A stretch of DNA of 64,000 bases from a virus (taxonomy: Duplodnaviria > Caudoviricetes), in IMG/VR virus record IMGVR_UViG_3300037851_000671, positions 96,001 to 160,000 of that record, one strand, 5' to 3'. Shown here one piece after another: positions 4,653 to 59,680 of the stretch. Position 1 is the first letter of the stretch. Each line of letters begins with the position of its first letter. A program made the translations under genes and the position numbers. The notes beneath the pieces were generated by a model, which was not told the origin of the DNA, made no database searches, and saw only the letters and a list, made by a program, of their open reading frames with translations.

Positions 4653-7600
4653 TGGCAAATCTAAGAGTTCTTGACATAAATGCAGCTGACAGCAGAACCA
4701 TCAAGGTCAGGTTTTCAAGCCCTGTAACTGAGTATGTTTCTGCGTCAAACGTTCTTGTGGTTTCTAAAGAAAGCGGCATCCCAGATGCTGAGGTTATTGG
4801 TGTCTCAACGACAGATGACATCCTGATCATAGAAACGCAACCAATGACACCATTCAGCAGGTATGATGTCATATTCAGATCCACTAACGCAGTGAAGTTT
4901 ACCAGCGTAGACGGCCAAAGCTATCTGGTAGAGGATGGTCAAGCCAATGTTCGCCAGGTTTTGGGTTCAGAAGACCCTGATAATCAGATACGAGATTATC
5001 TGGCTATGGCTATCGGTGGAATGGAAGGTGTATACGACATATCAAGAGAGTCTTTGGTAAGAACCATTCTAAACATGTTGTCTGATGAAATCAGAAAAGC
5101 AAAAGCTGACATTCGCGAATCGAAAAGCGCTGTGTTTTTGAGAAGGTTCGTAAAAGACGAGCAGAAGGTACGTGGGTTTGGTCCGTGGGATCGTTTGAAT
5201 CAGGAAGGCGCTTACAGTGTGGTTCGTGTTGGTCTTCAACCAACCGATACCACAATCCCCGGTTCTATACCTTTCTCCTATTTCCCACACGATCCGGTAA
5301 CACTACAAAGAGTCGTTATATCGAAAGAAACCCTGTCTGCTGGCTTTGGTTCTGGAACTTTTGATGGGTTATTGCTTACAGTTGAGAATAGTCCTGTAAC
5401 AAAACTAAAGTCTGTCTCCATCCAGTACGAGAACGGTGATGTGTACAACTACAACATATCCTCATACGGTTACAGAATCAACAACACTCGCTATGATAGT
5501 CAATTTTCTCGTACATTGGTAACACTGGAAGATAACCAGTTCCAACTTAGTGATGATCTTCTTGATGATGCTACGTTTGTTTTGCCAGGTGGTAATGACA
5601 AAATAGTTGTCTCATATGAGTACAAGAATCTTGGCATCAATGTCGATGAGCAGTCCGTTACCGTAACTCAAGTGATACCTGTTGTAAGAGAGCCAGCCCC
5701 AGCATTGTCTACGGTTTTCTCGCTGATAGGTGGTCCGGTAGTGACGGCTGGAGATCAGATTCCAACGTCAGGCGGGGTGGTTTTTCTAGACCCTTACTCG
5801 GCCACACCATTTAGAAACATACATCCGGCTTTCTTGAGAGAGCTACCATACAGACAGGAAGGATTGCCAAAGCAACCAGGCGAGTATTGTGTTGATTACA
5901 GCACAGGAAGAGTCTACGTCTATGGGGCCTCTTCCAATGATGGTACTGGTTATTTCCCTCCGGCCATGACGTATAACTACCGCAAGTCATATGTCTCTAA
6001 ACTGGACTACACCTATGTACCAGAATACATGGACTTGGTTGCATCTCCTTTGAGAGAGTTGATTGGGCAACCGGCCAAAATCAACTTCAACCTACAGGTT
6101 TCTCTAGTCCCAGGAAAGGACTATGTTGCCAATGTACATGAGGAATCACGTAACGAACGCATAGGAAACAAGATAGCTTCTCTTGGTTCCGTTTACACAT
6201 CACACTCCCCAATCACCAATGTATTCAGAGTTTACAATGAAACAAGTGGTGAGGTGTACACAATCAACAGATTCAACAAGAACAGAATCTATTACTCATA
6301 CAGAACTCCGCCAAACATCCAAGATGCCATAAGAGAACGCGCAACGTTCGCTCAGGTATTGAATGAACAGCTTGTTTTGGATTCGGAGACAATCAATGGT
6401 CTTGGAACAAGGATTTTCAAGTTCGTTTTGAGAAATAGCGTTGTGATATCTGCAACGGATGATTCAATAGGATCTAATTACAACACAAGCGCAACATTCA
6501 GCAGGCCTGACATTTTTGGTACAGAGCTTTACTATGATGGACAAGAGCTTCCTGTATCAACCAACATCAACAGGATAACTGTAGGGGATTACCAGATCAA
6601 CTACAGAACTGGCGAGGTATATGTTGGTGTTCCAAATTCTCAAGAAGCAAATGTAGGAAGCATTACCTACAAGAAAAAAGTCATAGCGCCAAACAACCCA
6701 CACGTAATATCTGTGTCCGATGTTTACTACAGCATTGCGCAAAACACAGGTATAACCAAAAAACTTGATTTCACGTCATTCGATGATGGAGAGATAACCC
6801 CAAGTGTGGTTGATCCTTCTGATGAAAGGTTCACGAACAATGACACCTCTGCACCGTACTTTTTCTACAATGGTACTATAACTGTAACTGATGACATCAA
6901 AACAGTCAGAGGTGTTTATGATGCCTACGATCTGAACAACAACCGTTCTCCGGTAAACTTTGCTGACAGTGCGAGCTGGGACGCTAACGTAATCACACTC
7001 TCTGCAACTGGAATCAACCAAACGGCCACAGTGGTAGTTGGGCCTGGGCTGGTTATCTCAACGCCATTCATATCTCCTGGCATGAATGTATCACTTGCCA
7101 TCAGCGCAATCAGAGCTTCAGACAACCAGCAGTTGATAGATGGGTACGAAACAATCAGTGGAAATGACATAACCCTTAGTGTTACATCAGGGGCTGTGGT
7201 TGGTGATGTTGTAAACGTCATATACACAATAGTTCTAAATGGCGCGTCAACACCTGTTGTCGATTACAACAAGGGAGATTATTTCGTTGACTATAGCTAC
7301 TTATTAGACGAAATCCTGGTGACATACGAGTGGGGAGATAATGTCATAGACTTCAGGACAAGCAAAGCCCTTGACGAGAATGATGAATACTATGTTTCGT
7401 ACATAGTTGGAGCCTTGCGCGATGACCTGTTGAAAAACTTTGGTTCAATGGTCCAGATTGATGAGCTTCAGGCTTTTGATGAGGACATGGATCGTGAGAT
7501 TTACAGAGCGGCTTTGTCTGGTGCTCTGCAAACGTTTACACAGGGACCAACGCTTCCAGCCATGAAACAGCTTGTAGCTTTCATAACCAAAATCGAACCA

Positions 7601-10600
7601 GAGATTGTGGAAGCTTTGTTCAATGCTTGGACGCTTGGCACCAGCTATCTTGGAAAAGTAGAGCCATCAGTATTGGGCGCTCCTGAATTCGTTTCAGCGG
7701 TATTCGATCAAGGATTGCTTGCAAACAAGAAACAGGACGCGGTAGCATTCCCGATATCCAACAATCTTCGTCTAGAAGAGGGCACCATTCAGATGTTTGT
7801 CATACCAGAATGGAACGGTCTTGACAATGACGCAGCGCTTACGTTCGAGCTGTTCAAAGACGGCTATAACATGGTCTCTCGTGACATATACATTGGAGCT
7901 ACTGGATACAACCCAACCATAGTTGATGGCAAGTTCACAGTTAGCCGTCTTGATGAGCCTTCCCCAATAGGAATACCAGCTACCATTTACACGAACAAGG
8001 GAATGTTCATATACTATGACATTGACGTAAGCCAATGGAAAGTATTAGCCAAAGATATACCAGCCATTACAGATGGGTATATGTACTCAGGCACCATCAC
8101 AAGCGATGGTAGTTTCTACAACGCAAAAAACATCCCTGGACTTGGGGAGCCTTCTGACGTGATACGATCTGGTATCAAAACCATTGATTTTGAGCTCCAT
8201 CTTGACGGCTATGATGTAGCTGGCCCTGATGGGTACAATGGTCTTCCAGATGGTTATGTACCAGGATACTCTTTTGACGGAATTCAGTTCATGTCAGATA
8301 GGGACCATTACCTGTTCGACTTTGGAAGAAGCGAATTTGAGAACAGATTCTCTTTGTACAAGGACGGAAGAGGTTATTTGGTATTCGAGGTTTGGGACAA
8401 GGGAGGAACACCATATTCCTCAGCTCCGCCAAGAAGAAAGAATGTATACCAAGTCAGTGCAGATATCAGCTCTTGGAAGGTTGGAGAGAAACATAACGTT
8501 GCGGCGTCTTGGATACTGAATTCTGTCGATAAACGAGACGAGATGCATCTGTTTGTTGATGGTTTCGAGACACCAAACGTGGCCAGGTACGGAAACATTC
8601 CAAGCATAGCATCTTCCAATAGGTTCCGTACCGTTGTTCCAGAACAGGTTGTTGGAACTGTTACAAAGACATCCATAGCCGGAAATGACCTGAAGACAAC
8701 CGCCGGTCTTCAAACCGTTACATCCGCTACCCAAAATTTCTCTGCATCTGGTATTGTTCCTGGCGATACAATCCAAATCAACGAACAAGGATTTGGAACA
8801 TATACAATTGTATTTGTAAATGGAAATGAGCTTACACTGACATCAAGCATGCCAGCCTCTCTTGATGACGCCAGGTTCTCTGTCAACCCAGCCACATTCA
8901 TTGTTTCAACTGAGGTTGATATCTACAAGAACATTGCAGTGTTTGTTTCTTCTGGCGGCGTTGAAACAGAGATACCAGGACAGAGCGCTAGTATCCCTTC
9001 TTACAGCATAGGGCGCAACGCTAACAACCAAAGAATACTAACTATTCTTGGTAATGTGAGTGTTGGTGATACTGTGTTACTAAAAACATTTGGATTGAAC
9101 CACAGACGCTCAAGAGACAAGCTTTACCTATGGTCAGATGGAGAGTCTATTCTAAAGACACAGCTTCCACCTCCAATCAATCTGGATGACGTTATTATAA
9201 AGGCTGTTCCACTTACTCTCACGCCAATCGGACCAGCAAACTCAACTTTGATTCTTGGTGATTTCCAGGCCTCTCTTACTGGCATTGGCCAACCAACCAA
9301 CTCCACTACAGGTCGTCATCTTGAGATAAGGATTACTGGTGATAATACCAATTTCACTAACCCTGTAACTGTAACAATCAATGGAACATCAAGCGCTGGG
9401 CCATCTGAGATTGTAACGTTTACACAGCCAGGCAAGAAGAGCACTGTTGCCAATTGGAAGACAATTACCTCCGTTGATGTTGTTGTAACCCCATCAATCA
9501 CAACCAAGGACGCTACAGGCGTTGAGATAAAAGAACTGTACTCGGTAACGGTACCTGATGGAAGCACTAATGTACCGGTGATTAGGTATGCTTACAGAAC
9601 CCAATCAGGATCTGCTCTTGAGGGTGTTGGTGGTGGTTCTCCAATAGTCTCCGATACCATGGGTGCTTTCTACGACTCTGATATTGGAAACCTACTTGAG
9701 ATTACATCACCCCCAAGCGTGGCTGGAATATACACAATTGCTGATCGTCTTGATTCAAACACGATAAGGATTGATACGGGTTTGACCACAGCGTTCTCAA
9801 ACGGAACTTATGGGGTTTACAATATCTCTATAGGAAGAAGCGGTTTCCAAAACGGTTTCTTTTTCTTGGAGAAAAAAAACGTTACCAATCAGCCTTATGG
9901 CCTACCAAAGGGCTGGTATGAGATTGACTATGCCACATATCTAGCTGTGCCGATGGATCCGATTGACAATATCAACGCTTTCGTTGGCAATGATATGACT
10001 GGAAACAAGCCATCAAACGCAATCATTGATGAGCTTAGAATACTGAACATGCAGCTAACGGATACAAGGGTTGGGGAAACCATTGGCGAGAATGAGGATT
10101 CAATCACGGTCGATGCTTCTGCATTTTCACCTTTTGTTAAAACAAAAGACACTCTGACACTACTTCACTTTGACGAGAACCCTCCAATAAATGATGTTGA
10201 TTTTTATAGATTTGCAACAAAGGAATACATACAATCAGGCACCAGTGTAAACGACAGGTTTGGAAAGTCAATTGTAGTAAAGGATAAGGGTCTGGTGTTT
10301 GATAACGAGGGCAAACTATCCACAAATAAAGAGGGCATGATTGAGTTCTGGGTAAACCCAAGATTTGACACCTTCAACGATCCGAACGTAAGGGTATATT
10401 TTGATGCATCGGCTAATGCTGTTGAAACCGTGACAAGCATAACCAAGGGTAGGGTTATGGTAAACGGTCGTGTAAGCCGCGTTGTTTCTGTAAAACTGGC
10501 ATCTGATCCGAAGAGTTCTGATGATTATTTTGCAGGTGGTACGATTGATACTGACAGAAAAACACTGATACTGAATCGTCCTTTACCATACCAACAGACT

Positions 10601-11335
10601 CCAGTGATTGTATCTTATGTTCCATCTGGATCTGCTGGAGATAGGATTGTCATTGCAAAGGACAGTGATGGCGGAATCACGTTCACGGTTTGGGCTTCTG
10701 GAAAAGAGTATCAGGTAAGACAGATGGTATTCTGGCCTCGTGATACCTGGCACAGAATCAGGGCATCTTTCAAGTTCAATCGTCCTGACCACAACGATGA
10801 AATAAGACTGTTTGTGGATGGAGAGGAAAGAGGAACTATTCTGTTCGGAACCAATTTGGTGTTCGGTCCTGAGTCAATCTTTGGACAGGCCCCTGTAGGC
10901 GCAGGATCATCTCTGATTGATGATATAAATTTCACCGATACCGTAACACAATTTTCATTAGGCCAAGATTTCACGGGGGCGTATGGAGCGCAGGCCAGAT
11001 TTGACAACTTGAAAATATCAAACAAGTCAATCAACCCGCTTGTGGTTGGCGGGCAGTCCAAGGATGTGTATTACAACATAAACAAGGATTTCATTTACCC
11101 ATCAATAGAGGATGCTTTTACGACGTTCTTGTTTGATTTCGATCAGTTGGTTGAAAAAGTGACTGATTTTGCGATACTGAGAGATCCAACTGTTGGTATA
11201 TTCAACTTCGATTTGAACATCATTGATTCTTTCGGCATAGTGCTAGGTGATGCAAAGGTAAAGAAGGTTCTAGAAGCCATGATTGCAGCGCTAAAGCCAG
11301 CCGTATCCAAGGCTAACATTACCTATGTGAAGTGA
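4652..11335 (+). CDS. large baseplate wedge protein with LamG/ConA-like domains
   Basis: 2227 aa; N-terminal Ig-like 'SRTIKVRFSSPV'; LamG signatures 'EGTIQMFVIP..HNVAASW..MHLFVDG..IIDELRI' and 'EGMIEFWVNP..WHRIRASF..RLFVDG..FDNLKIS'; C-terminal 'ALKPAVSKANITY' resembles the gpI/DUF2313 LKPA end; overlaps the baseplate J stop. Confidence 0.65.
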   Translation: MANLRVLDINAADSRTIKVRFSSPVTEYVSASNVLVVSKESGIPDAEVIGVSTTDDILIIETQPMTPFSRYDVIFRSTNAVKFTSVDGQSYLVEDGQANVRQVLGSEDPDNQIRDYLAMAIGGMEGVYDISRESLVRTILNMLSDEIRKAKADIRESKSAVFLRRFVKDEQKVRGFGPWDRLNQEGAYSVVRVGLQPTDTTIPGSIPFSYFPHDPVTLQRVVISKETLSAGFGSGTFDGLLLTVENSPVTKLKSVSIQYENGDVYNYNISSYGYRINNTRYDSQFSRTLVTLEDNQFQLSDDLLDDATFVLPGGNDKIVVSYEYKNLGINVDEQSVTVTQVIPVVREPAPALSTVFSLIGGPVVTAGDQIPTSGGVVFLDPYSATPFRNIHPAFLRELPYRQEGLPKQPGEYCVDYSTGRVYVYGASSNDGTGYFPPAMTYNYRKSYVSKLDYTYVPEYMDLVASPLRELIGQPAKINFNLQVSLVPGKDYVANVHEESRNERIGNKIASLGSVYTSHSPITNVFRVYNETSGEVYTINRFNKNRIYYSYRTPPNIQDAIRERATFAQVLNEQLVLDSETINGLGTRIFKFVLRNSVVISATDDSIGSNYNTSATFSRPDIFGTELYYDGQELPVSTNINRITVGDYQINYRTGEVYVGVPNSQEANVGSITYKKKVIAPNNPHVISVSDVYYSIAQNTGITKKLDFTSFDDGEITPSVVDPSDERFTNNDTSAPYFFYNGTITVTDDIKTVRGVYDAYDLNNNRSPVNFADSASWDANVITLSATGINQTATVVVGPGLVISTPFISPGMNVSLAISAIRASDNQQLIDGYETISGNDITLSVTSGAVVGDVVNVIYTIVLNGASTPVVDYNKGDYFVDYSYLLDEILVTYEWGDNVIDFRTSKALDENDEYYVSYIVGALRDDLLKNFGSMVQIDELQAFDEDMDREIYRAALSGALQTFTQGPTLPAMKQLVAFITKIEPEIVEALFNAWTLGTSYLGKVEPSVLGAPEFVSAVFDQGLLANKKQDAVAFPISNNLRLEEGTIQMFVIPEWNGLDNDAALTFELFKDGYNMVSRDIYIGATGYNPTIVDGKFTVSRLDEPSPIGIPATIYTNKGMFIYYDIDVSQWKVLAKDIPAITDGYMYSGTITSDGSFYNAKNIPGLGEPSDVIRSGIKTIDFELHLDGYDVAGPDGYNGLPDGYVPGYSFDGIQFMSDRDHYLFDFGRSEFENRFSLYKDGRGYLVFEVWDKGGTPYSSAPPRRKNVYQVSADISSWKVGEKHNVAASWILNSVDKRDEMHLFVDGFETPNVARYGNIPSIASSNRFRTVVPEQVVGTVTKTSIAGNDLKTTAGLQTVTSATQNFSASGIVPGDTIQINEQGFGTYTIVFVNGNELTLTSSMPASLDDARFSVNPATFIVSTEVDIYKNIAVFVSSGGVETEIPGQSASIPSYSIGRNANNQRILTILGNVSVGDTVLLKTFGLNHRRSRDKLYLWSDGESILKTQLPPPINLDDVIIKAVPLTLTPIGPANSTLILGDFQASLTGIGQPTNSTTGRHLEIRITGDNTNFTNPVTVTINGTSSAGPSEIVTFTQPGKKSTVANWKTITSVDVVVTPSITTKDATGVEIKELYSVTVPDGSTNVPVIRYAYRTQSGSALEGVGGGSPIVSDTMGAFYDSDIGNLLEITSPPSVAGIYTIADRLDSNTIRIDTGLTTAFSNGTYGVYNISIGRSGFQNGFFFLEKKNVTNQPYGLPKGWYEIDYATYLAVPMDPIDNINAFVGNDMTGNKPSNAIIDELRILNMQLTDTRVGETIGENEDSITVDASAFSPFVKTKDTLTLLHFDENPPINDVDFYRFATKEYIQSGTSVNDRFGKSIVVKDKGLVFDNEGKLSTNKEGMIEFWVNPRFDTFNDPNVRVYFDASANAVETVTSITKGRVMVNGRVSRVVSVKLASDPKSSDDYFAGGTIDTDRKTLILNRPLPYQQTPVIVSYVPSGSAGDRIVIAKDSDGGITFTVWASGKEYQVRQMVFWPRDTWHRIRASFKFNRPDHNDEIRLFVDGEERGTILFGTNLVFGPESIFGQAPVGAGSSLIDDINFTDTVTQFSLGQDFTGAYGAQARFDNLKISNKSINPLVVGGQSKDVYYNINKDFIYPSIEDAFTTFLFDFDQLVEKVTDFAILRDPTVGIFNFDLNIIDSFGIVLGDAKVKKVLEAMIAALKPAVSKANITYVK

Positions 11336-14348: not shown

Positions 14349-15467
14349 ATGAAAATAAAAATACAACAATTCCTTTTTGGCGTTAACCATTCTTGGGCGT
14401 TTGTTGGTCAGAATCTAGGAAGATCTCTGCTGAAACTTGGGCATGATGTAGAGTTCGTTTCAACAGATGGAATAGTTGAAAAATATGTTCCATCTGATTT
14501 GAAGCCGCACGTTAGAATCAAGCCAACCGGAATTTATGACTGCCAAATAAGTTATACAGCTCCGCATAATTGGCATTATTATCTTGCACACGGCACAAAG
14601 AACAAATTTGGAATATGGAATTACGAATATAACAATCGTCAATTTACAGATGAATATAGAACCCTATTAGCTGGGTTTGCCAAGCATTACAAAGCATGTA
14701 ATTATGTATTGCCATCATCTGAGTTTACGAGAGAAGTATTCAGGAGCATGTCTATTCCAGATGAAAAGATGAGGGTAGTGCCCCACGGCATCAACCTTGA
14801 AGATTTCGCTTCAGAAAAAGCCATAACACTAAGAACTAACAAGAAAAGAAAAATACTCCTAAACATTGCCCAACCACACAAGCGCAAGGCACTTCATTTG
14901 GCTCTGAAGGCATTTGGAAAAGCATTCACGAAAGATGATGATGTTTGTTTAGTTGCCAAGGTGTTCAAAGAGAATAAGAAAGACCACCAATTTGATGTTG
15001 ACTTTCCTTCCCTGTATAGAACGTTCGAGAGCAAATTTCCGAATCATGCAGAGGTCGAGTTCGTATATGATTTCATCCCAAACATTGCAGAGATTTACAA
15101 AGCATGTGATGTGAACTTCTCGGCAACATTTGCGGAATGCTGGCATCTTCCATCACTTGAAGCATTGGCAGCAGGAATAATTAACGTAGTTCCAAGATAT
15201 GGTGGTCAACTTGATTTCTGCAATGATGAGAACTCTTTGTTAATAGATGGGTCAGTTGTAAGAGCACCAAGAGATCATCAATATTGGCAGTTCAATCCTT
15301 ATGCTGTTCATTTTGAAATAGACACAGATAATGCGGCTAAGAAACTGCAACAGGCTGTTTTTGAGCATGATTCGCTGAAGGCGAAGTTTCAGTCGAGAAT
15401 GCTAGACACCGCCAAACAATTTACCTGGGATTCCGCTGCAACACAAATTCTCAATCTCTGTGAGTGA
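14349..15467 (+). CDS. glycosyltransferase family 4 (GT-B)
   Basis: 'VVPHGIN', 'RKALHLALKAF' and the EX7E motif 'ECWHLPSLE'. Confidence 0.9.
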   Translation: MKIKIQQFLFGVNHSWAFVGQNLGRSLLKLGHDVEFVSTDGIVEKYVPSDLKPHVRIKPTGIYDCQISYTAPHNWHYYLAHGTKNKFGIWNYEYNNRQFTDEYRTLLAGFAKHYKACNYVLPSSEFTREVFRSMSIPDEKMRVVPHGINLEDFASEKAITLRTNKKRKILLNIAQPHKRKALHLALKAFGKAFTKDDDVCLVAKVFKENKKDHQFDVDFPSLYRTFESKFPNHAEVEFVYDFIPNIAEIYKACDVNFSATFAECWHLPSLEALAAGIINVVPRYGGQLDFCNDENSLLIDGSVVRAPRDHQYWQFNPYAVHFEIDTDNAAKKLQQAVFEHDSLKAKFQSRMLDTAKQFTWDSAATQILNLCE

Positions 15468-15553: not shown

Positions 15554-16339
15554 ATGCCAATGAAGCCAAGACTGTCCATCGTTGTTCCGGCCTACAACAA
15601 CTACGCAGAATACACTAAGAAATGCCTTGAGGATCTAGTTAAGCTGCCGGAAAATCATCAGATTATTCTGGTGGACAATGGAAGTACCGATGGAACACAA
15701 GAGCTTGTAAACTACCATTGGTTTCCTGGGGATTTGTTTGGGGTACCTGCTCCTGTTCCAGACGAAACACTGGATGATGATGCTTCTTGGGCCAAGCAGC
15801 TACGAGAACAGCGCTTATATGTCAGGGCCAACGGAGAAAACTTGGGTTTCGCCAAGGCTTGTAACATCGGATATCAGGCGGCCAAAGAGAACGGGGCGGA
15901 ATTCGTAATGTTCTTGAACAACGATATACGAGTTCGCAGCAATCATGCCGAGTGGACAAAACCAATTCTAGAAGTGGCGGCTTCTGGCAGGTTGGCCGGA
16001 CCAACCATGGGACTTTTGGATAACAGTTTTGTTTTTGTTGGCGAGTATGCACGAATGCCATCTGGTAAAAACGTGTATATGAGCGGGTGGTGTATCACAG
16101 CATCGATAGATACCTGGGAAAAACTTGTTCCTGAAAATCACATCGGTCCTTTCTGCGAAGATTTTGGATTGGCGTTCCACGAAGATACTGACCTTGGTTT
16201 CCGAGCACGCAAACTTGGAATTGAGTTTGGTATAGTTCCAATTCCAGTTCATCATTTTGGTCATAAAACAACTGACAAATTAAACACCAGTCTGTTATAC
16301 AGGCAGTCTCGTGTTGTGTTCATGAAAAAATGGGGATGA
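15554..16339 (+). CDS. glycosyltransferase family 2
   Basis: 'SIVVPAYN', 'VDNGSTDG', 'NLGFAKACN', 'FLNND', 'EDTD'. Confidence 0.92.
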   Translation: MPMKPRLSIVVPAYNNYAEYTKKCLEDLVKLPENHQIILVDNGSTDGTQELVNYHWFPGDLFGVPAPVPDETLDDDASWAKQLREQRLYVRANGENLGFAKACNIGYQAAKENGAEFVMFLNNDIRVRSNHAEWTKPILEVAASGRLAGPTMGLLDNSFVFVGEYARMPSGKNVYMSGWCITASIDTWEKLVPENHIGPFCEDFGLAFHEDTDLGFRARKLGIEFGIVPIPVHHFGHKTTDKLNTSLLYRQSRVVFMKKWG

Positions 16340-16340
16340 T

Positions 16341-17150
16341 ATGACAGTTCTTCATATACTTACATTGAATTGGAATGGCATCGGTATTATCGGTGATCTT
16401 CACAAATCACTGAAGCCAGCTCTTGATGTTTTGAAAGATATACAGACTGTTTGGCATGTTAGAGACAATGGCTCAACCGATGGTTCGCTTGAGTATATCA
16501 ACACAATCAAAGATATTCCAACAAACATATTGGCAGCTGGTCATAACAGGGATTCATTTGCTGGTGGTGTAAATTCTCTTTGGTGTGAAGCAAAGCCAAA
16601 TGACAATGACTATCTCCTTCTTTTGAATAATGACGTGGTGTTTTTTGATCCTACGTCAATTGAAAAGATGATCAGCCTACAGAAAGCAACCAAGGCAGGG
16701 GTTGTTGGGGCAAGGTTACTATTCACAGGAACGAACAAACTACAACACGCTGGTGTCATTTTCAGCGATAGGTATGGGAGAATGCCTTTCCATTATCGCC
16801 CAAATGAACCAACGGATGCCGCTGCTGAGAAGAACCGTTATTTCCAAGCCGTAACCGCTGCGTGTTGCCTGGTGAAGGCGGGAGCTTTTGCCAAGATCGG
16901 TGGTTTGGACGAAGGTTATCGTTGGGCCTTTGAAGACATAGATATGTGTTTGGCTATTGGAAAAGATCATAAGATTGTCTATTGTGGCAACACCGGCATC
17001 TTCCATGGCGAGAGTGTAAGCTTGAAAAAGAACAATGTGAATAAGTTGTTCTTGAACCCAAACGTAAAACTGTTCAGGGAGAAGTGGACAGGTAAGTATA
17101 AGATAGATCACGATGCGTATTTGCGTGATGTAAATTTCAACGTTGTTTGA
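16341..17150 (+). CDS. glycosyltransferase family 2
   Basis: 'DNGSTDG', 'LLLNND', 'AVTAACCLV', 'GGLDEGY..FEDIDMC'. Confidence 0.92.
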   Translation: MTVLHILTLNWNGIGIIGDLHKSLKPALDVLKDIQTVWHVRDNGSTDGSLEYINTIKDIPTNILAAGHNRDSFAGGVNSLWCEAKPNDNDYLLLLNNDVVFFDPTSIEKMISLQKATKAGVVGARLLFTGTNKLQHAGVIFSDRYGRMPFHYRPNEPTDAAAEKNRYFQAVTAACCLVKAGAFAKIGGLDEGYRWAFEDIDMCLAIGKDHKIVYCGNTGIFHGESVSLKKNNVNKLFLNPNVKLFREKWTGKYKIDHDAYLRDVNFNVV

Positions 17151-50646: not shown

Positions 50647-50691
50647 ATTGGCATAATGAGGGATATAGTTGAAAACTTCCAAAGAGGAAAC

Positions 50692-53600
50692 ATGTCAAAC
50701 AACCCAGCGTTCCCTTATGCCAGGTATCCATTTGATTTGGATGACCACCGTCCCGTTGATACTTTTGGTGTACCAGTGGTTAGTGATGGTACAACCCCTG
50801 TAAAAGCAGAGGTTCCTAATCGTCATAGCGATATAGTTTTGGCTATTGAAGCCGAGCTTGGTCTTTTGCCAAGTGGTACGTTTGATACTGTCAGGGCGCG
50901 TTTGGATGCCATTGAAGCCATGATCCGTAGCGGCGGCGGGACAGGTGCAACAGGGCCCACAGGTGCAACAGGGCCTGTGGGCCCTACAGGAGCTACGGGT
51001 CCAACAGGAGCTACGGGTCCAACAGGATCCACCGGTCCTGCGGGTCCATTGGTTCCATTGTCAACCATTCTTGGTGTTGGAAATAGCACAGGTTCAAATA
51101 ACATTGATGTTCAAGATGGGTACAAGGTTATCCTTGGAAACAATGGTCTAGGAGTTGATTCTTATGTATCTGGTGCTGTTGGTGGAGATTTCTTCCCAGG
51201 AACCATAAACCTGTACGCAAACCAAACTGCTATCAAAATTTTCCCAGTAGTAAATCCTAGTTTACCTGATGCAAGTGGTCAGATTGTACTAATCACATCC
51301 CCATATAGCACAGCGACTGGCGGTGGTAAAGAGGGTCAACTCTATGTACAGCCAGCTTTTTACATACCAGGAATAACCACTGATACTTGGGGAAGCCCTG
51401 GAGGTCTTGGGTACAACGGTATTGGTGGTGGTGTTGGTTGGTATGTAGGAGATGGATATGGAGATTTCTTTGCTGGTGGTGTAGGTTTTGGAGGCGGAGA
51501 TCACTATACCAATGACACATACTCAGTAATAGACGGGTACGGTGCTAGATGGCAAACGGCATCGGCTGGTGGAACAAATGGTGGGGCATATTGGGATGGT
51601 TGGCATGTATTCCAGGGTGCTTTAGAACTAGCGCCACTACACAGAGATCCTACAAGTTTAAATCATGCAACCCTTGGTTTTGGATCTTTGCTGTATGCAA
51701 AAACAGTTTCTGGAAACGCCTACAGCTCTCCAAAAGTGACGCCTGTTATCAATGAACTTTTCTGGAAACGTCAGGATGATACTGTTGAGCAAATAACCGG
51801 AATGAACTACGCAACCCAAACGTGGGTTGATGGGTATTTCGCTTCTTGGGGGTTACCACAAGTTCTAGGAATCAATCCTAACACCTCTGGTCATGACATA
51901 ATAATGACTACAACTGACAAGTTTCAGTTCAGTCATGGTTACATCCAGAACACAACATCATTCAACGTAAATGTTGATACCGGAATTGACTACATACTGA
52001 CGGTTGACAATAACATTATTGCTGGAAACTCACACTCTGTAACGGGCGTTGTAGTTGGAGCTGTAATTGCTGGTGGTAGCAACAACACCATAACAGACAC
52101 AAATAACTCTGTTATTGGTGGTGGTACACAGAATACCATAATTGATGCTACCGGATCATCAATACTATCTGGAATCGATGGGTACATAGCATATTCCAAA
52201 GGCTCAATAATATCAGGAGGAATACAAAACACAATCACTGTACTTGATTCTTCTTGGGATGGCTACAACGTAATTAGCGGTGGCGCCAGAAACAGCATCA
52301 TTAATAGCTCTGAATCTGCTATTTTTTCTGGTTACAACAACAAAATAACAGCCCTTGATGGTCTGGTAGTTAGTGGTGACTCTAATATAATTTCAGGAGG
52401 AAGAAACAATGAGATTATGCTTGGTTTTGGAAGTACGATTGCTGGTGGCCAAGGCAACAAATCTATTGGTTTCAATGTTTGGTCAATATGGCCTAGCCAA
52501 ACATTTATTGGAGGCGGTACAGACAATTTGGTTATTGGAAATTTCAATGCACCAATCATCGTTGGTGGAGAACGTAATGTTATAGCTGCAGTTAATAGTA
52601 GCGTGGGTGATGTGGTCGTAGGTGGTGAGGACAACATCATTGGAGCCACTGTACTTGGAACAGCCACAACATCAGTGTCTGGATCTACAGTGACATTGGT
52701 TATTGGACACGGTGTAACAGCATCAATAATCGGAGAGTACATACTAATCTCCGATTCAGAAAATATCGGAAACAACGGAAGATTTGCAATAACAGCGGTT
52801 CCAACAACCGGTACAATTGAGTATACAAATGCTAGTGCAGTTACTGGTACAACTGTATATTTCTTGCTAGACATCTTCAACCTGTCATTAAACAACTTTA
52901 TAGGATCTGGAGACTCAAACAAGATTCTGTCTAATATCAAAAATAGCGCAAGTGATCAGAATGTAATTACAGGCGGTTCACACAACACAATCAGTGCTAT
53001 AGCTACACACAGTGCAATCACGAACGTAATTGGTGGTGGACAAACAAACTCCATATACGGCGGCCTTGCTCATTTTATTGGTGCTGGTCAAGATAACACA
53101 ATAAGCTCTAGTTCTGTTGGTAATTCTGTTGCGTGTTCAATTGTTTCGGGTATAGATAACTCTATTGGTGCAACCAATGACACCTATGAATCATCAATAC
53201 TTGGCGGTCAACAAAATACAATTGACGCTTTTGATGGAAGTTCTGGAACATATCAGTCAATTATACTTGGTGGTCAAAATAACTATATAGGACGCACTCC
53301 AAATTCTCTAAGCGTTCAATCTATGATTGGTGTTGGTGGGTACAACACGGTTTCATCTATCTGGGGAACTTTGGGTAGCGGATACTACAACGCTTTATCT
53401 AATGATACAGCAACACCAAATGCCCAATCCAGAGTCCAAGGTGGATCTTCACTTGTAAATGGTTCTCATAACTTCATCCTGAATGAGCAAGAAGCATTCA
53501 TTGGAACCGGTTACAAGAATACTATTGTTGTTGGACAGGGGGATACAATTGTTGGCGGAGAGTCCAACACAATAGGTGGTATTGGAAGTTTCCAAGCAAC

Positions 53601-56600
53601 AACAACAATTGTATCACAAGCTGCTCCAATACCAATTCCAACAGATTCTGATACCAGCCTGCATTTCAGATTTGCAGAAAGTGCAGCGCCTTTCCTTAGC
53701 TCCGGTGTTAGTGCTCTATCACTTTCTGTTTTGGGCAACGCTCCAACTGTAACCACAAGTGTAAATGAGGTGTTTGGAAGCGCTGTTCAATTCAATGCAG
53801 ATGGATTGTTAACATCAAATGACACCACGGTTGGAGAGGTTAGCGGAACGGCATGTACCATCACTATGTGGGTTAAGATTCCGTCAGTAATTGCTAGCGG
53901 AGTTTTCCTTGCGAAAAAGTATGATTCATCTGTCAACGTTTGGGGATATCCGTTTATTTCTGTATACATGGCCCTTGAAGCGGCTTTGGACGGATCTTGG
54001 AACGTCTCACTAACAACAGGGGGAACGCTTACAGGAATAACAGTACCAACCGTTATCCCAATAGATACATGGACATTGATTGGTTTCACTTATGATGGTA
54101 GCGTTGTAAAAACATACCACAATGGTAGCTTGGTAAATGTAACCCCATTGGTTGGATCGATAGATTGGGGAGCACATGGACCGTGGTGTGTTGGTGGTGG
54201 TATCAGTAGTAGCACTGGTATTCAGCTTAATAACGCCACAGTTGACGACATAAGAATTGAAGGTGTTGTAAGAGATGCAACGTACATGTCAAACATGTAC
54301 AATGCTACTGGTCTGAAATTCAATGTTGGAACTACACTTCCACCATATGATGTTTGGGGAGATAACGTTGTCATAAACCATGCAGCAACTCCCGCAAACA
54401 ATAGCGTTGCAACTCCTTTCAAGGCTGTTGGATACATATCAACGAGCGAGGAGATTGTGTATTACAATCCTGCCGGAAGCGCGCCAGATTATGGAATAGC
54501 CGGCCCACGAGGTATTTCGTTTCCGGGCGTTACCTGGGAGTTGTATGGACCGAACGGAGCAAATGGTTCTGATAACTTCATTGGCAATGGTAGTCTTAAC
54601 CGTATTGATTCTCTTGGTAAATATCAATCTAACTACAGCTCCGTTGTTGGTGGTTATTCTAACGTAATCTCATCTTGTGCAGGTGCATTTGTTGGTGGTG
54701 GTAATGGTAACTCTATCACAAACGCATCCAACTATAGCGCTATTGTTGGTGGACAGAATGGAAAGATTTCAAATTCTACGAAATCTTTTATCGGAAGCGG
54801 AGACGGTGCAACTATAAACAACTCTTCAGCGGTTGGTGTTATAATTGGATGTGGAATCAATGGTAACATAAATGGTAGTCAGTCTTCTGTTGTTGGTGTT
54901 TTAGGTAGCGGGCCAAACACAATTGGTGGCGCTGGTATCAGGTATAGCCACCTTGGTGTTATGATGGGTAATGAAACCATCACTGATAGCGCCCTTCAAT
55001 ACTCAAACATTGGTGTCATGCTTAATGGAGCCACCATTAACAATGGAGGGTTGAATTACAGCAATATTGGTTATATGAATTACTCTGTAACCATCAGTAA
55101 TACTGGTGTTCAAAACTCAACCATTGGATATATAAGCGCCGGTGCTGTTGTTAACAATGTCTCAAGCTCATCTATTGGGTACCTACAGTCCGTAACTATA
55201 AACTCATCAGGTATATCTGGTTCATCTGTTGGTTATCTTGGAAGTGGAACAACAGTAACAAGTGCTGGTATTAGCTCGTCAAATATCGGAAGGATGAGTG
55301 GTGGTATAACCATAGACCAAAACGGAATACTATCTTCCAACGTTGGTTTTGTTGGTAGCGGTGGAGCGATAAGTCAGATACTTGACGCTGATATAGGTCT
55401 AATAAACGGAAACATATCACTAACACAAAACGGAATTCAGCACTCATCTGTTGGATATATTGGTGCTTCGACAACAATTGCTGATGGTGGTGTCACGTAC
55501 TCTGCTATTGGGTATATGTCAGGAAATACCTTAAACGATGGTGGTATAACCCACTCTTCAGTTGGAATAATGGATGGAGCATCTACCATTACCAATAACG
55601 GTATACAAAGATCTGCCATTGGTTATATTTCAGCAAGCTCCACAATAAACAATGTTCAATATTCACACATAGGAACGTTATCTGGCGGTGCAACGATTGG
55701 CACAGATGGCGTTACATACTCTACCATTGGATACATTAGTGGTGGAGCTAATATCTCTGCAATCTCTTACTCTGGTATTGTGGCAATAACCGGAGGTGCA
55801 AGCATCAACGCAAGTGCCAACGGAACGGTTGTTTCACAATCGTTCATTGGTTTGATGCAAGGTGGAACATCGGTTAGTTGCAATACAGGAAAGGGTATTG
55901 TAAACTCTTGTGTCGGGTATTTTGATGGTGGTGTTACAGTTGCTGGTGACGGTATCACAGGATCATATGTAGGACGTATTGGTGGCGGAACCAACATCAA
56001 CGGATCTGGAATACTTGGAGCTTCGTTCATTGGTCTTGTTGATGGTGGTTGCACTGTCAATAACGTAAGCGGCTCATCTCTGGTTAGGGTTGGTGGTGGT
56101 ATATCAGCAACCAACATTTCTAACTCTTTTGTTGGAAATGCTTTTGCTGGACCAACGATCTCCGGTCTAACAACTACATTTATTGGTATAATCCAAAGTG
56201 GTAGTACGGCATCAACCGTTGGATACAGCTTCCTTGGAACGCTAAACAACGGCGGAAGCGTTACAAATAGCAACTATGCTTTCTTTGGTGTTTGCGGAAA
56301 TAGCAGCTCTATTGCTGATAGTAACAACGCGTTCATTGGTGCCGGTGTATCAAATACAATATCAAACGCAGACTACTCAACAATTGTCAATGGTAACAAT
56401 TGCCATGTTGAAGCTGACTACGGAGAGGCTTCTGGTAAAAACAGCTCAGCAAGGTTGGTTGGACAGGTTGTCAGATCTTTGGGTCAGTTTGCTACACAGG
56501 CTGATAACCAGGTTTCAAATCTCATAGTAAATGGAACCGCCCCAGGAGGCCTTGCTTTTGCTCTTGAAATTCCTGGTGATGGATATGTAACTCTTGAGAA

Positions 56601-56886
56601 TGACAAGGTTTACGACATCTCTATCAGGGTTGTTGTAACGACCACATCTGGTTCTTTGCTAAGGGCAAGGTTCAATCTTGATGTTTTGGCATACAAGCAA
56701 TCTGGTGTGGTTTACATTGATGATGTAACTACGGTAAGTTCAGTGATTGCTGGAACAGACTGGAACGTTACAGTTGACTCTGGCCCAGGCACGGATGTTC
56801 TAAACATTGTGATAGATTCTTCTACTTACATACAAGACAGAAGAGCAATGGCAACGGTAGAGTGGAGAGAAATTGGAGTAGTATGA
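50692..56886 (+). CDS. long tail fibre / adhesin-like virion protein (collagen, Gly/Asn solenoid repeats, LamG)
   Basis: ATG 50692 with AGAGGA RBS (track start 50656); 12 GXY triplets; many 'xIxGGxxNxI' repeats; LamG at ~53641-54312. Confidence 0.8.
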   Translation: MSNNPAFPYARYPFDLDDHRPVDTFGVPVVSDGTTPVKAEVPNRHSDIVLAIEAELGLLPSGTFDTVRARLDAIEAMIRSGGGTGATGPTGATGPVGPTGATGPTGATGPTGSTGPAGPLVPLSTILGVGNSTGSNNIDVQDGYKVILGNNGLGVDSYVSGAVGGDFFPGTINLYANQTAIKIFPVVNPSLPDASGQIVLITSPYSTATGGGKEGQLYVQPAFYIPGITTDTWGSPGGLGYNGIGGGVGWYVGDGYGDFFAGGVGFGGGDHYTNDTYSVIDGYGARWQTASAGGTNGGAYWDGWHVFQGALELAPLHRDPTSLNHATLGFGSLLYAKTVSGNAYSSPKVTPVINELFWKRQDDTVEQITGMNYATQTWVDGYFASWGLPQVLGINPNTSGHDIIMTTTDKFQFSHGYIQNTTSFNVNVDTGIDYILTVDNNIIAGNSHSVTGVVVGAVIAGGSNNTITDTNNSVIGGGTQNTIIDATGSSILSGIDGYIAYSKGSIISGGIQNTITVLDSSWDGYNVISGGARNSIINSSESAIFSGYNNKITALDGLVVSGDSNIISGGRNNEIMLGFGSTIAGGQGNKSIGFNVWSIWPSQTFIGGGTDNLVIGNFNAPIIVGGERNVIAAVNSSVGDVVVGGEDNIIGATVLGTATTSVSGSTVTLVIGHGVTASIIGEYILISDSENIGNNGRFAITAVPTTGTIEYTNASAVTGTTVYFLLDIFNLSLNNFIGSGDSNKILSNIKNSASDQNVITGGSHNTISAIATHSAITNVIGGGQTNSIYGGLAHFIGAGQDNTISSSSVGNSVACSIVSGIDNSIGATNDTYESSILGGQQNTIDAFDGSSGTYQSIILGGQNNYIGRTPNSLSVQSMIGVGGYNTVSSIWGTLGSGYYNALSNDTATPNAQSRVQGGSSLVNGSHNFILNEQEAFIGTGYKNTIVVGQGDTIVGGESNTIGGIGSFQATTTIVSQAAPIPIPTDSDTSLHFRFAESAAPFLSSGVSALSLSVLGNAPTVTTSVNEVFGSAVQFNADGLLTSNDTTVGEVSGTACTITMWVKIPSVIASGVFLAKKYDSSVNVWGYPFISVYMALEAALDGSWNVSLTTGGTLTGITVPTVIPIDTWTLIGFTYDGSVVKTYHNGSLVNVTPLVGSIDWGAHGPWCVGGGISSSTGIQLNNATVDDIRIEGVVRDATYMSNMYNATGLKFNVGTTLPPYDVWGDNVVINHAATPANNSVATPFKAVGYISTSEEIVYYNPAGSAPDYGIAGPRGISFPGVTWELYGPNGANGSDNFIGNGSLNRIDSLGKYQSNYSSVVGGYSNVISSCAGAFVGGGNGNSITNASNYSAIVGGQNGKISNSTKSFIGSGDGATINNSSAVGVIIGCGINGNINGSQSSVVGVLGSGPNTIGGAGIRYSHLGVMMGNETITDSALQYSNIGVMLNGATINNGGLNYSNIGYMNYSVTISNTGVQNSTIGYISAGAVVNNVSSSSIGYLQSVTINSSGISGSSVGYLGSGTTVTSAGISSSNIGRMSGGITIDQNGILSSNVGFVGSGGAISQILDADIGLINGNISLTQNGIQHSSVGYIGASTTIADGGVTYSAIGYMSGNTLNDGGITHSSVGIMDGASTITNNGIQRSAIGYISASSTINNVQYSHIGTLSGGATIGTDGVTYSTIGYISGGANISAISYSGIVAITGGASINASANGTVVSQSFIGLMQGGTSVSCNTGKGIVNSCVGYFDGGVTVAGDGITGSYVGRIGGGTNINGSGILGASFIGLVDGGCTVNNVSGSSLVRVGGGISATNISNSFVGNAFAGPTISGLTTTFIGIIQSGSTASTVGYSFLGTLNNGGSVTNSNYAFFGVCGNSSSIADSNNAFIGAGVSNTISNADYSTIVNGNNCHVEADYGEASGKNSSARLVGQVVRSLGQFATQADNQVSNLIVNGTAPGGLAFALEIPGDGYVTLENDKVYDISIRVVVTTTSGSLLRARFNLDVLAYKQSGVVYIDDVTTVSSVIAGTDWNVTVDSGPGTDVLNIVIDSSTYIQDRRAMATVEWREIGVV
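50944..51051 (+). repeat. collagen-like (GXY)12, Thr-rich (GAT/GPT)
   Basis: GATGPTGATGPVGPTGATGPTGATGPTGSTGPAGPL. Confidence 0.92.
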
Positions 56887-57308
56887 CAAATACAAGGCAA
56901 ACAGTTATCGTTGATGCCACCGTACACTATGATGGATATGTGGTAACGTATGATGCCGGATTAGATGCATACATACCAAAACCAAATTCTGCTACAGTTT
57001 CAACAAGTGTGGAAGATGTGTCGGGCACTGGGGCAACCATTGCAGACCCATCATCAATGTCAAAACGGGTGAGGATGTTGGGCGCGGCGGCATGTACAGT
57101 GACGTTACCAGCTGATTCATCAATCAGTGACGGGGCAGTATGGAGCTTCAAGGATGTGCAAGGTAATGCAGGATCCTACACTTACACAGTGGCTGTAAAT
57201 AGTCCTATGACAATTGACGGTTCATCTTCATTTGTATTACCATCAGCCGCTCATAGCTCAGTGACAATTGCTTACCACAAAGCAACCAAGAACTGGGAAG
57301 TGCAATGA
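56883..57308 (+). CDS. small fibre-associated protein
   Basis: ATGA overlap with the fibre stop; 'DGYVVTY' and 'TVTLPA..FKD..G.A..TIDG..SVTIAY..W' module seen in phage fibres. Confidence 0.6.
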   Translation: MTNTRQTVIVDATVHYDGYVVTYDAGLDAYIPKPNSATVSTSVEDVSGTGATIADPSSMSKRVRMLGAAACTVTLPADSSISDGAVWSFKDVQGNAGSYTYTVAVNSPMTIDGSSSFVLPSAAHSSVTIAYHKATKNWEVQ

Positions 57309-58813: not shown

Positions 58814-59680
58814 ATGACTTATTCAACCTTGACAACAAAAGATGCTACAGTGGATGATGGATTGAAATTCTATGACACTCTTTTCCATTGTCGTGGCAAT
58901 GGCACTAACGGATCCACTACATTTACAGATATAAGCCCAAATGAAATATCATTGGTAGCATCTGGTCACGCACAAGTATCAACTGCCGTTACAAAATTTG
59001 GCAACGGATCTTTATATGTAGATGGTTATACGGTTGCTGACGGATATTCTTGTGTAGAAGGTGACAACGGAGCTGCTCAAATATACGTGGGTAATTCTGA
59101 TTATTGTATGGAAACGTGGTTCTATCTAAACTCATGGGGGGCATTTCTTATGGGGGCTGGTTTGGATAGGGATGGCCAAGGCACCGTATTACACGTTGAT
59201 GCTGGTGGAACTCATCAGCTTTGCACCACATACCACATAGGAACAACCGGATCTGGTTACAGTTTGTTCGAGTGGAGTATTGCCAGTTCTATTGGTGTTA
59301 CTTTAAATACCTGGCATCACGCAGCTGTTGTAAGAGATGGTGAAATGGGTGTTATGAGAGTGTTCTTGGATGGTGTTCCTGGTAGTTACTATTCAATTGG
59401 AACAAATGAAATACATATGTTTGGTGGTAGACTTTGGTTGGGTGCTTGTCCATTTGGTAGAATCAGTACCACCATGAATGGTTATCTAGAGGAGATGAGA
59501 ATCACAGTGGGTAGCCCAATGTATCGCGGTCCATTCACACCTCCAGCGGCCCCATTTTCTGGTAAACAAGCATATCCGGCTGATGGTGTTACAGGGGAGG
59601 TTAGAGATGGTACTATTGGAATGTACGTATGCGATTCCCCTTCGTACAAAAGATGGACACGATTGAATGTGATAAGGTGA
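58814..59680 (+). CDS. LamG/ConA-like domain virion protein
   Basis: 'FHCRGNGTNGSTTFTD', 'KFGNGSLY', 'WHHAAVVR', 'LEEMRITVG', 'FTPP'. Confidence 0.85.
   Translation: MTYSTLTTKDATVDDGLKFYDTLFHCRGNGTNGSTTFTDISPNEISLVASGHAQVSTAVTKFGNGSLYVDGYTVADGYSCVEGDNGAAQIYVGNSDYCMETWFYLNSWGAFLMGAGLDRDGQGTVLHVDAGGTHQLCTTYHIGTTGSGYSLFEWSIASSIGVTLNTWHHAAVVRDGEMGVMRVFLDGVPGSYYSIGTNEIHMFGGRLWLGACPFGRISTTMNGYLEEMRITVGSPMYRGPFTPPAAPFSGKQAYPADGVTGEVRDGTIGMYVCDSPSYKRWTRLNVIR

Follow-up and report, generated by a model that had tools for sequence, protein, structure and literature searches.

Why does one exact tripeptide, Asp-Gly-Tyr (DGY), recur in the outer tail and fibre proteins of a huge phage, and what would it mark there? 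The question is raised by a 64,000-nucleotide stretch of DNA (the window) from an uncultured huge freshwater phage, of which no cultured relatives were found in the phage GenBank collection. A sequence-only reading of the window had tallied 24 DGY copies by hand and taken the motif for a candidate modification or docking tag. An ORF scan returns identical counts, with every copy at the position originally given, from the first site at 7139 to the last, which ends at 59047, and with the triplets at 8204-8257 and 13417-13464 reading as described. As detailed below, DGY is a real, undescribed surface mark; literature searches on the motif found no report of it.

Genome-wide, DGY is the top over-represented tripeptide, with 79 copies against 11 expected (z 13; the runner-up reaches z 6.7) and against 20 expected from a first-order Markov model. 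Within-protein shuffling yields 5.6±2.3 copies for the virion block, which holds 75, and 1.9±1.5 for the virion proteins of the window, which hold 24 (maximum over 500 shuffles, 8). The enrichment holds after composition correction. Asp-Gly-Tyr stands at about 13 times above chance in outer neck, sheath, baseplate and fibre proteins throughout the clade. A per-position test limits the enrichment to D, to G and to Y, respectively: DGF and NGY are not enriched, DYG, GDY, YGD, EGY and DGW also lie at background, and permutations are found at about 1x. The copies are clustered (19 gaps of at most 15 residues vs 5.5 expected), and tandem arrays of variable copy number are seen. A scan for in-frame threefold tandems gave 28 loci for DGY, 9 for GDY and 11 for DGF, a modest difference, with the DGY arrays lying in giant proteins and those of the GDY and DGF controls in small ones.

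The motif had also been described as confined to virion proteins and missing from non-structural ones. Over the 12,468 aa of the window's 46 non-virion ORFs there is indeed no copy where 1.8 would be expected; this avoidance is not significant (0 vs 1.8 in the window, 3 vs 3.9 and 1 vs 1.6 in further counts), and the non-virion proteins of the related genome G006 carry DGY at background. Since non-virion proteins are not depleted, the tripeptide alone cannot be the entire signal. The description stands for the outer virion proteins and fails for several others of the virion, as the major capsid protein, the portal, the protein after the sheath (the tube by position), a weak tape-measure-like protein, a gp25-like protein and a J-like baseplate protein all have no DGY, nor has the terminase.

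There is practically no chance that the motif is a by-product of composition, of internal repeats or paralogy, or of a signal in the DNA. The carriers are slightly richer in Gly and Tyr, some sites fall within repeated units of the 1786-aa head fibre, and GGG codons are over-used within DGY in this genome, but the reading is already contradicted by the shuffling (75 observed vs 5.6±2.3), Markov (79 vs 20), frame and gain tests. The codons of DGY vary, as had been observed in arguing that it is not a DNA repeat, and the pattern GAYGGNTAY in plus-strand genes occurs 76 times in frame 0, never in frame 1 and 5 times in frame 2, with about 6 antisense occurrences; this frame specificity rules out a DNA-level origin and places selection on the protein. 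The GGG excess was considered as a DGY-specific signal and rejected, being a general Gly-before-Tyr context effect (20% in xGY) that is absent in G006. In addition, DGY has been gained at non-homologous sites of unrelated proteins.

All carriers in the window are encoded on the plus strand. The first is a 2227-aa baseplate wedge/fibre protein with a LamG domain (4652..11335), whose 6 DGY (0.63 expected) start at nt 7139, 7859, 8072, 8204, 8228 and 8249, the last three forming a cluster; its orthologue in G006 has 7, and that in the related locus L026 reads DGYDGYDGY at the equivalent cluster. It is followed by a 996-aa peripheral baseplate protein (11332..14322) that combines jelly-roll/CBM-like domains with a true dockerin module (Pfam Dockerin_1 match, dockerin fold recovered by Foldseek) and holds 8 DGY against 0.22 expected, at nt 13126, 13240, 13417, 13438, 13456, 13519, 14092 and 14110. 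Farther downstream, a 2076-aa fibre (50656..56886) with collagen-like, LamG and beta-flower matches contains 7 (0.58 expected), at nt 51115, 51451, 51532, 51829, 52177, 52258 and 56578. A 148-aa protein (56862..57308) has a single DGY at nt 56931, within an N-terminal stretch similar to that of the 1786-aa head fibre, DGY included. The last carrier, a 288-aa LamG protein (58814..59680), has 2, at nt 59021 and 59039. Here the motifs had been thought to be inserted into a loop, and the protein does show six extra residues (YTVADG) with respect to three sibling units; the insertion follows the LY-x-[ND]-G turn conserved in those siblings and creates the second DGY. Beyond the window, carriers include the head fibre, the neck, the tail terminator and an inserted domain of the sheath, with 13 DGY in one protein and 3 per sheath subunit. 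Most DGY proteins have no match in PHROGs or Pfam, and peptide patterns found no close relatives of the 1023-aa protein in viral_contigs.

Two confident AF2 monomer models place all 11 mapped sites in coil or turn. In the model of the 996-aa protein (pLDDT 84.4) the 8 sites are all in coil, 5 of them within two loops of low confidence (pLDDT 56-87 by block, and below 50 at residues 900-903). In that of the sheath, whose identity is given by a PHROG tail sheath match and by a VIA-align superposition on the phi812 sheath (Z 33.8, rmsd 2.6 Å over 322 residues), several sites are well-ordered tight turns with pLDDT of about 90, which could be structural, and the DGY sites lie outside the core of about 320 residues common to minimal sheaths. 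DGY is thus predicted to lie in turns and loops, probably exposed, of outward-facing virion proteins. Repetition of some known fibre motif does not account for the sites, although the sequence-only reading had raised that possibility against its own proposal. Unlike the DxDxDG Ca2+ loop, the 79 sites have no conserved DxDx upstream; the sole overlap seen is in the 996-aa family, where DGY coincides with the D-G of the second dockerin Ca2+ loop in 106 of 120 orthologues, this genome's copy not being among them.

The enrichment extends over the clade, with 494 DGY vs 64.5 expected in 78 related loci. The 996-aa family, which has more than 600 members in metagenomes, shows a mean of 7.8 per protein vs 0.23 expected over 120 orthologues, core sites that read DGY in 89-117 of these, and 20 columns of sporadic gain. 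Conservation takes the form of islands amid variable flanks, Tyr being conserved at 0.83 within DGY vs 0.50 elsewhere. Where the Tyr of a DGY is lost, its replacements are mostly polar or aliphatic and Phe makes up just 10-22% of them; together with the lack of DGF enrichment, this suggests that the hydroxyl matters. At the three sheath sites the inner clade has DGYG, the intermediate clade D-[SAD]-Y-G and the outgroup D-S-N-G or D-D-T-G, from which DGY appears to have replaced older D-x-x-G turns, and the terminator sites show a similar evolution. Judged from these alignments, the pattern looks typical of a motif that something reads. The outgroup G002, a complete genome, is enriched only about twofold. 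All DGY-rich genomes belong to one lineage, so that co-occurrence of the motif with any gene island amounts to about one evolutionary event; among testable large contigs with an in-frame DGYDGYDGY no independent DGY-rich lineage was found, since every one of them has the same sheath family, and these contigs therefore offer no independent replicate.

What could read the motif is suggested by the genes that follow. Directly after the fibre genes lies an island of ten or more soluble glycosyltransferases and sugar-nucleotide enzymes on the plus strand. Its first gene, adjoining that of the 996-aa protein, encodes a GT4-family (GT-B) glycosyltransferase (14349..15467; Pfam Glyco_transf_4 and Glycos_transf_1). 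The rest (15554..35438), whose encoded proteins contain zero DGY, comprises five clear GT2 and one marginal GT2 match, GT10, GT11 and Glyco_trans_1_2 transferases, an FkbM and a second methyltransferase, an ATP-grasp protein, a DegT aminotransferase, a GDP-mannose 4,6-dehydratase and two epimerases/reductases, with homing-endonuclease-like inserts at 33615-34530. For those island proteins that are unannotated, neither the ESM Atlas nor relaxed Pfam searches yielded a usable lead. A weak GT2-like gene is also found 3' of the head fibre gene.

The cassette at 15554-24687 is syntenic in G006. GT4 is conserved in its place beside the fibre genes in 8 of 8 genomes tested (this one, G006, G002, G003, G009, G004, G005 and G016); it lies directly 3' of the 996-aa orthologue in G006 and G002, and its coordinates in G003 and G004 are beside DGY-rich fibre genes or a GT2 cluster. 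It has 527 homologues at E ≤ 0.001, with 51-73% identity among the 120 matches listed. The co-occurrence of DGY with glycosyltransferase islands, which had been proposed as a check, gives a divided answer: the island is kept in place across the clade, but the DGY-poor outgroup G002 also has one, at the equivalent position and with different content, GT4 included. Island presence or absence consequently does not discriminate, and motif density does not track the island. Scoring by GT2 (PF00535) alone, with 3-7 matches in DGY-rich genomes vs 0-1 in the outgroup, was discarded as misleading because the syntenic island of G002 includes GT4. As for an alternative substrate, the thymidylate-synthase/hydroxymethylase family was not found in G004, G005 and G014, three of the four near-complete relatives that bear an island, which makes glycosylation of 5-hydroxymethyl-pyrimidine DNA unlikely there.

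The leading explanation, at a probability of roughly 0.4, is that DGY serves a phage-encoded glycosylation of the virion in the cytoplasm, as its acceptor or recognition site. Selection appears to have placed, kept and multiplied DGY in exposed turns and loops of the head fibre, neck, terminator, sheath insertion, peripheral baseplate and fibres. A soluble transferase, the best candidate being the GT4 whose gene comes next after that of the distal fibre, would put a first sugar on the Tyr hydroxyl, and the glycan would be extended by the GT2, GT10 and GT11 enzymes and methyltransferases of the island, with GDP-sugar derivatives supplied by its dehydratase, epimerases and aminotransferase, so that the tail and fibres would end up coated with sugar. 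In its full form we put the proposal forward tentatively, as a clade-specific code in which Asp-Gly-Tyr may mark exposed loops for Tyr-linked glycans, which GT4 would start and some ten soluble phage enzymes would extend, on neck, sheath, baseplate and fibres. As would be asked of a sequon, the motif is short, over-represented in and confined to its target proteins. A lipid-independent route is consistent with the absence of an initiating phosphoglycosyltransferase (Bac_transf, PF02397) and a flippase (Wzx, PF01943) from five genomes (three with a completeness of at least 96%), and with an island that has one candidate transmembrane segment only, in a 327-aa unknown protein; host genes could still supply both functions. 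The link between DGY and glycosylation is circumstantial: we infer that the island acts on protein, that Tyr is the acceptor and that GT4 starts the chain. No family known for Tyr glycosylation was identified. Against glycosylation speak the lack of DGY in the major capsid protein, which viral glycosylation usually targets, and the well-ordered tight turns of the sheath, which could be structural.

The same observations can be read without any modification. It is rather unlikely that DGY is an intrinsic binding motif, in which the Asp-Gly turn presents Tyr, and the Asp carboxylate, as a small sticky patch, and equally so that such patches make polysaccharide, cell-surface or Ca2+ contacts for a weak multivalent adhesion of tail and fibres to particles, a biofilm matrix or the envelope of the host. 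Recognition surfaces favour Tyr, Gly and Asp, and the sites are predicted in exposed turns and loops; many carriers have lectin-like LamG or CBM-type domains, the dockerin Ca2+-loop overlap noted above points the same way, and clusters and tandem arrays suit avidity. Generic stickiness, however, needs no exact D-G-Y order, whereas all the permuted and substituted tripeptides are at background; the sheath, terminator and neck are not receptor-binding parts, and the upstream DxDx of Ca2+ loops is missing at most sites. Docking or self-association, through DGY loops that bind a common partner (a decoration protein, a LamG lectin unit or a fibre-assembly chaperone) or Tyr 'stickers' that gather tail parts in assembly, is unlikely. 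A motif common to many unrelated outer proteins and conserved as islands within variable flanks would suit it, and the tandem arrays resemble tyrosine-sticker low-complexity tracts, but most sites are single ordered turns rather than such tracts, a stoichiometric dock would hardly call for 13 copies in one protein or three per sheath subunit, and no partner was identified.

Other chemistry at the Tyr or the Asp-Gly, be it phosphorylation, sulfation, nucleotidylation, oxidative Tyr cross-linking or succinimide/isoaspartate formation, of phage, host or spontaneous origin, is quite unlikely. It would agree with a strictly required Tyr for which Phe does not substitute in the enrichment, and no sequence is more prone to isoaspartate formation than Asp-Gly. 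That last chemistry nevertheless leaves Tyr without a role, no kinase, sulfotransferase, Fic protein or oxidase is found among the annotated genes of the window, and the sole large enzyme set conserved beside these genes makes sugars.

If the glycosylation reading is true, DGY would be the first tyrosine sequon defined in any system, which would be useful for glyco-engineering, and its use here the first tyrosine-linked glycosylation of a virion. Phage enzymes that read DGY would provide a simple sequence rule for modified sites on the virions of an abundant uncultured clade, with a compact set of parts (a DGY domain, GT4, the island and its sugar-nucleotide genes) that is testable outside the host. 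Sugar-coated tails and fibres would be relevant to the survival of large phages, to how they avoid sticking to wrong surfaces and to their escape from recognition. Even without modification, an exact tripeptide repeatedly gained in unrelated surface proteins demands explanation.

Among known systems, the chlorovirus PBCV-1 glycosylates its capsid at non-canonical sequons with soluble glycosyltransferases of its own, the glycans being N-linked to Asn in the major capsid protein. Both cases have a soluble, virus-encoded multi-enzyme set, fucose-type sugars, methyltransferases, no lipid carrier and an acceptor rule of their own, but PBCV-1 is a eukaryotic virus and the candidate acceptor here is Tyr, on phage tail and fibre proteins. 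The general O-glycosylation sequon of Bacteroidota, D-(S/T)-(A/I/L/V/M/T), likewise has three residues with Asp first and marks many surface proteins, there for one glycan; its Ser/Thr acceptor stands beside Asp and transfer is periplasmic and host-encoded, whereas in DGY a Gly separates Asp from Tyr, and the carriers are virion proteins, assembled in the cytoplasm. The DxDxDG or dockerin Ca2+ loop has the Asp-Gly turn in common with DGY, while an exact Tyr is not part of DxDxDG. The S-layer proteins of Paenibacillus alvei and Thermoanaerobacter carry Tyr O-glycans on a repetitive surface array (PMC2943079), as is proposed for the Tyr here, and that review gives no tripeptide sequon for them. 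In S-layers the glycan is assembled on a lipid carrier, and an oligosaccharyltransferase transfers it outside the membrane, in contrast with the five phage genomes, in which genes of a lipid-carrier pathway were looked for and not found. Mycobacteriophages glycosylate their virions with enzymes that they encode, and experiments located the glycans on capsid and tail-tube subunits, at the C-termini (Freeman et al. 2023, Cell Host Microbe, as cited in PMC12619734). Unlike the mycobacteriophage case as cited there, the present one is predicted from sequence, its capsid and tube-position proteins lack the motif, its candidate sites are internal loops with an exact Tyr tripeptide, and its enzyme set is far larger; as in the mycobacteriophages, glycosyltransferase genes adjoin structural genes and a cytoplasmic glycan coat is proposed on virion proteins.

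All 24 Asp-Gly-Tyr (DGY) sites that the sequence-only reading had placed between positions 7139 and 59047 of the window were reproduced by an independent ORF scan. The 218,772-bp contig to which the window belongs (bases 96001-160000; genome coordinates below are positions on this contig) derives from an uncultured huge phage and represents about half a genome according to the CheckV estimate. It contains 79 DGY copies in 69,268 residues, against 11.0 expected from composition and 20.3 from a first-order Markov model, which makes DGY its top over-represented tripeptide (z = 13, runner-up 6.7). The enrichment survives composition correction, since shuffling each protein separately yields 5.6±2.3 copies against 75 observed in the virion block (genome 36.5-110.3 kb and 146.6-156.5 kb). 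Within the window, per-protein shuffles give 1.9±1.5 for the virion proteins, which hold 24, and 1.8 for the non-virion proteins, which hold none; the remainder of the genome shows 3 versus 3.9 and the head block 1 versus 1.6. Hence, non-virion proteins are at background, without depletion.

The enrichment is specific for each of the three residues: in the x-G-Y series D alone is enriched (7.2x, all other first residues at most 1.9x), as are Y alone in D-G-x and G alone in D-x-Y, the permutations DYG, GDY and YGD remain at 1x, and NGY, EGY, DGF and DGW are at expectation or lower. At the DNA level, GAYGGNTAY occurs in + strand genes 76 times in frame 0, never in frame 1 and 5 times in frame 2, and is rare in antisense, which confirms that the motif is not a DNA repeat and shows that selection acts on the peptide. 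An excess of GGG codons within DGY was traced to a general Gly-before-Tyr effect of this genome, and a relative does not show it.

Concerning gene order, the window starts with gp25-like and J-like baseplate proteins, followed by a LamG-bearing wedge/fibre protein of 2227 aa and a dockerin-containing protein of 996 aa. An island of ~21 kb for glycan synthesis comes next, and after it genes for a TubZ-like tubulin, helicases, a sigma factor, an intein-bearing ribonucleotide reductase and an M24 peptidase; a fibre of 2076 aa and several LamG proteins come last. DGY carriers are a LamG/collagen-like fibre of 1786 aa, whose gene follows that of the capsid protein, several proteins without annotation at 43-61 kb, a putative neck protein of 534 aa (L004:5206-6810, genome 65206-66810; five copies), appendage proteins of 1023 aa (13 copies) and 1689 aa (7 copies), a 315-aa putative tail terminator, the sheath (three sites) and a 715-aa protein; the window's 2227-aa, 996-aa, 2076-aa, 148-aa and 288-aa LamG proteins complete the list. 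The motif is absent from the terminase, the portal, the protein after the sheath, a weak tape-measure-like protein, the large proteins between sheath and baseplate, the gp25-like and J-like proteins and the intron-split major capsid protein (exon junction peptides confirmed), the functional labels of several carriers and non-carriers coming from gene position or weak matches only. Because terminase, portal, major capsid and others are DGY-free, "outer virion proteins" is the accurate description, in place of the earlier "virion proteins only".

Several genes of the contig are interrupted. The major capsid gene (genome 34113-36077, stretch L002) is split into exon 1, ending in ANPIR and a stop, and exon 2, beginning with RNLDY, separated by ~1.17 kb with a 304-aa endonuclease-like ORF in between, which would fit a group I intron. 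The ribonucleotide reductase large subunit (window 44173-47865) is split by an intein containing an endonuclease of LAGLIDADG type (matches to Hint, Intein_splicing and LAGLIDADG_3), and the LAGLIDADG homing-endonuclease match at residues 310-483 of the 985-aa terminase large subunit (L001:4876-7833) is probably an intein as well. The structural gene block also harbors a cysteine desulfurase (IscS/NifS-like; L003:17446-18546, genome 57446-58546; E 4e-30 to solved structures), kept at the same position in relatives.

DGY richness extends to related contigs. Neighbourhoods found via 1023-aa homologues show observed/expected values of 24/1.5, 18/1.1, 21/1.0, 21/1.5 and 15/1.3, and a sheath profile search of IMG/VR retrieved 78 loci, on contigs up to 459 kb, with 494 DGY versus 64.5 expected. 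Homologues of the 996-aa protein number more than 600, and the 120 matches listed (50-65% identical) average 7.8 DGY per protein versus 0.23 expected. Over all viral contigs, codon sets for three tandem DGY matched in frame 28 times, for the most part within giant proteins (1000-3400 aa), the controls giving 9 cases in proteins of mixed size (GDY) and 11 cases all below 450 aa (DGF). Every testable large contig among the tandem-DGY matches carries the same sheath family; hence, the richness belongs to one lineage, with no between-lineage convergence. No cultured relative was found in the GenBank phage set, nor any mention of the motif in the literature. Three records of clade proteins (P0065, P0140 and P0236) are publicly labelled Candidatus Pacearchaeota archaeon or Babeliales bacterium and are probably phage contigs mis-binned into cellular genomes.

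Modelled from an alignment of 45 sequences (mean pLDDT 83.6), the sheath agrees with solved sheaths (phi812: Z 33.8, rmsd 2.6 Å, 322 residues), only ~320 of its 825 residues being alignable to minimal sheaths. Its DGY sites, at residues 179, 186 and 203, occupy coil segments between the beta strands of an inserted domain (pLDDT ~90). Inserted domains of other sheaths are located on the outside of the tail, and judged from these the present one would also face the exterior. In the 996-aa model (118 sequences, pLDDT 84.4, pTM 0.76) all eight DGY are in coil, three at strand or helix ends and five within two loops of low confidence (block pLDDT 56-87, <50 at residues 900-903).

At the three sheath sites nearly all inner-clade members show DGYG, the intermediate clade D-[SAD]-Y-G or other residues, and the outgroup D-S-N-G, D-D-T-G or P-G-L; these alternative residues indicate that the sheath fold is independent of DGY, which arose at older D-x-x-G turns. 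The tail terminator site follows the same clade-by-clade pattern. In the 996-aa family ten columns read DGY in 30-117 of 120 sequences, and twenty further columns in 1-11. Conservation inside the motif versus elsewhere is 0.83/0.50 for Tyr, 0.97/0.79 for Gly and 0.84/0.72 for Asp, directly flanking residues often being below 40%. Sites lie closer together than expected (19 of 55 gaps span ≤15 residues, versus 5.5), tandem arrays vary in copy number between orthologues, and the second DGY of the 288-aa protein was gained through a 6-residue loop insertion, as first proposed.

The island (window 14349-35438) encodes one GT4 (14349-15467), five clear and one marginal GT2, a GT10, a GT11, a Glyco_trans_1_2 protein, two methyltransferases (one FkbM-type), an ATP-grasp enzyme, a DegT aminotransferase, a GDP-mannose 4,6-dehydratase and two epimerases/reductases, with a single hydrophobic segment across these proteins. 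Its cassette 15554-24687 is syntenic with the related genome G006 (27-57% identity), in which the NUMOD3 and TnsA-like endonuclease genes at 33615-34530, probably mobile inserts, have no counterpart. A TubZ/PhuZ-like tubulin gene (35488-36873) follows directly. No Bac_transf initiating transferase or Wzx-type flippase was found in five clade genomes (three at least 96% complete), so a self-contained lipid-linked pathway in the phage is unlikely. Sugar-modified DNA by the known 5-hydroxymethyl-pyrimidine route is also unlikely, since three of four near-complete island-bearing relatives (G004, G005 and G014) lack a thymidylate-synthase/hydroxymethylase-family gene, which G022 has. Protein is therefore the most plausible acceptor by elimination, itself incomplete.

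GT2 counts alone (3-7 in DGY-rich genomes versus 0-1 in the outgroup) had suggested a clean co-occurrence of island and motif. This was overturned by the complete outgroup genome G002, whose island of ~27 kb, between the 996-aa orthologue and the TubZ gene, contains, besides many genes without annotation, two GT4-like genes, one GT2, a dehydratase and an epimerase. As DGY there is only ~2x expected, motif density cannot be predicted from the presence of an island. Even G002 retains the gene order of fibre genes, GT4, glycan island, tubulin and helicase. The GT4, as first island gene, is the part conserved everywhere: homologues occur in 8/8 genomes tested and in hundreds of contigs, adjoining distal fibre genes in every readable neighbourhood, and it is a candidate enzyme for acting on virion proteins. 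A second glycosyltransferase may lie within the virion module: the 267-aa protein encoded two genes downstream of the 1786-aa head fibre (L003:2575-3378, genome 42575-43378) shows a weak GT2 match below threshold (E 0.001) and is 25% identical to a G006 GT2.

Overall, the DGY motif is real, exact, old and selected in probably exposed parts of outer virion proteins, and it is likely, with a probability of about three in four, that something reads it. The phage's own glycosylation machinery, with tyrosine as its target, is tentatively the single most likely reader, at somewhat short of even odds. Tyr lost from DGY is replaced mainly by Glu, Thr, Val, Asn, Ser or Asp, and not by Phe, a pattern that suggests exposed positions where the hydroxyl is important rather than the aromatic ring. 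Rivals to tyrosine glycosylation are a motif that is itself adhesive or Ca2+-binding, one that serves for docking or as a sticker, and a target of another modification, of Tyr or of Asp-Gly.

Some carriers display further modules. The 148-aa protein (window 56862-57308) and the 1786-aa head fibre (L020:1-150) have a similar N-terminal stretch, DGY included, which may be a shared attachment module. The dockerin module of the 996-aa baseplate protein (window 13126-13330; Pfam E 3e-8), kept in more than 100 orthologues, is genuine and matches cellulosomal dockerins with a Foldseek probability of 1.0 and a TM of 0.72. Finally, the C-terminal end of the 534-aa protein presents several H-x-H motifs (e.g. 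HMH, HTH, HTH) that resemble the metal-binding tips of some phage fibres.
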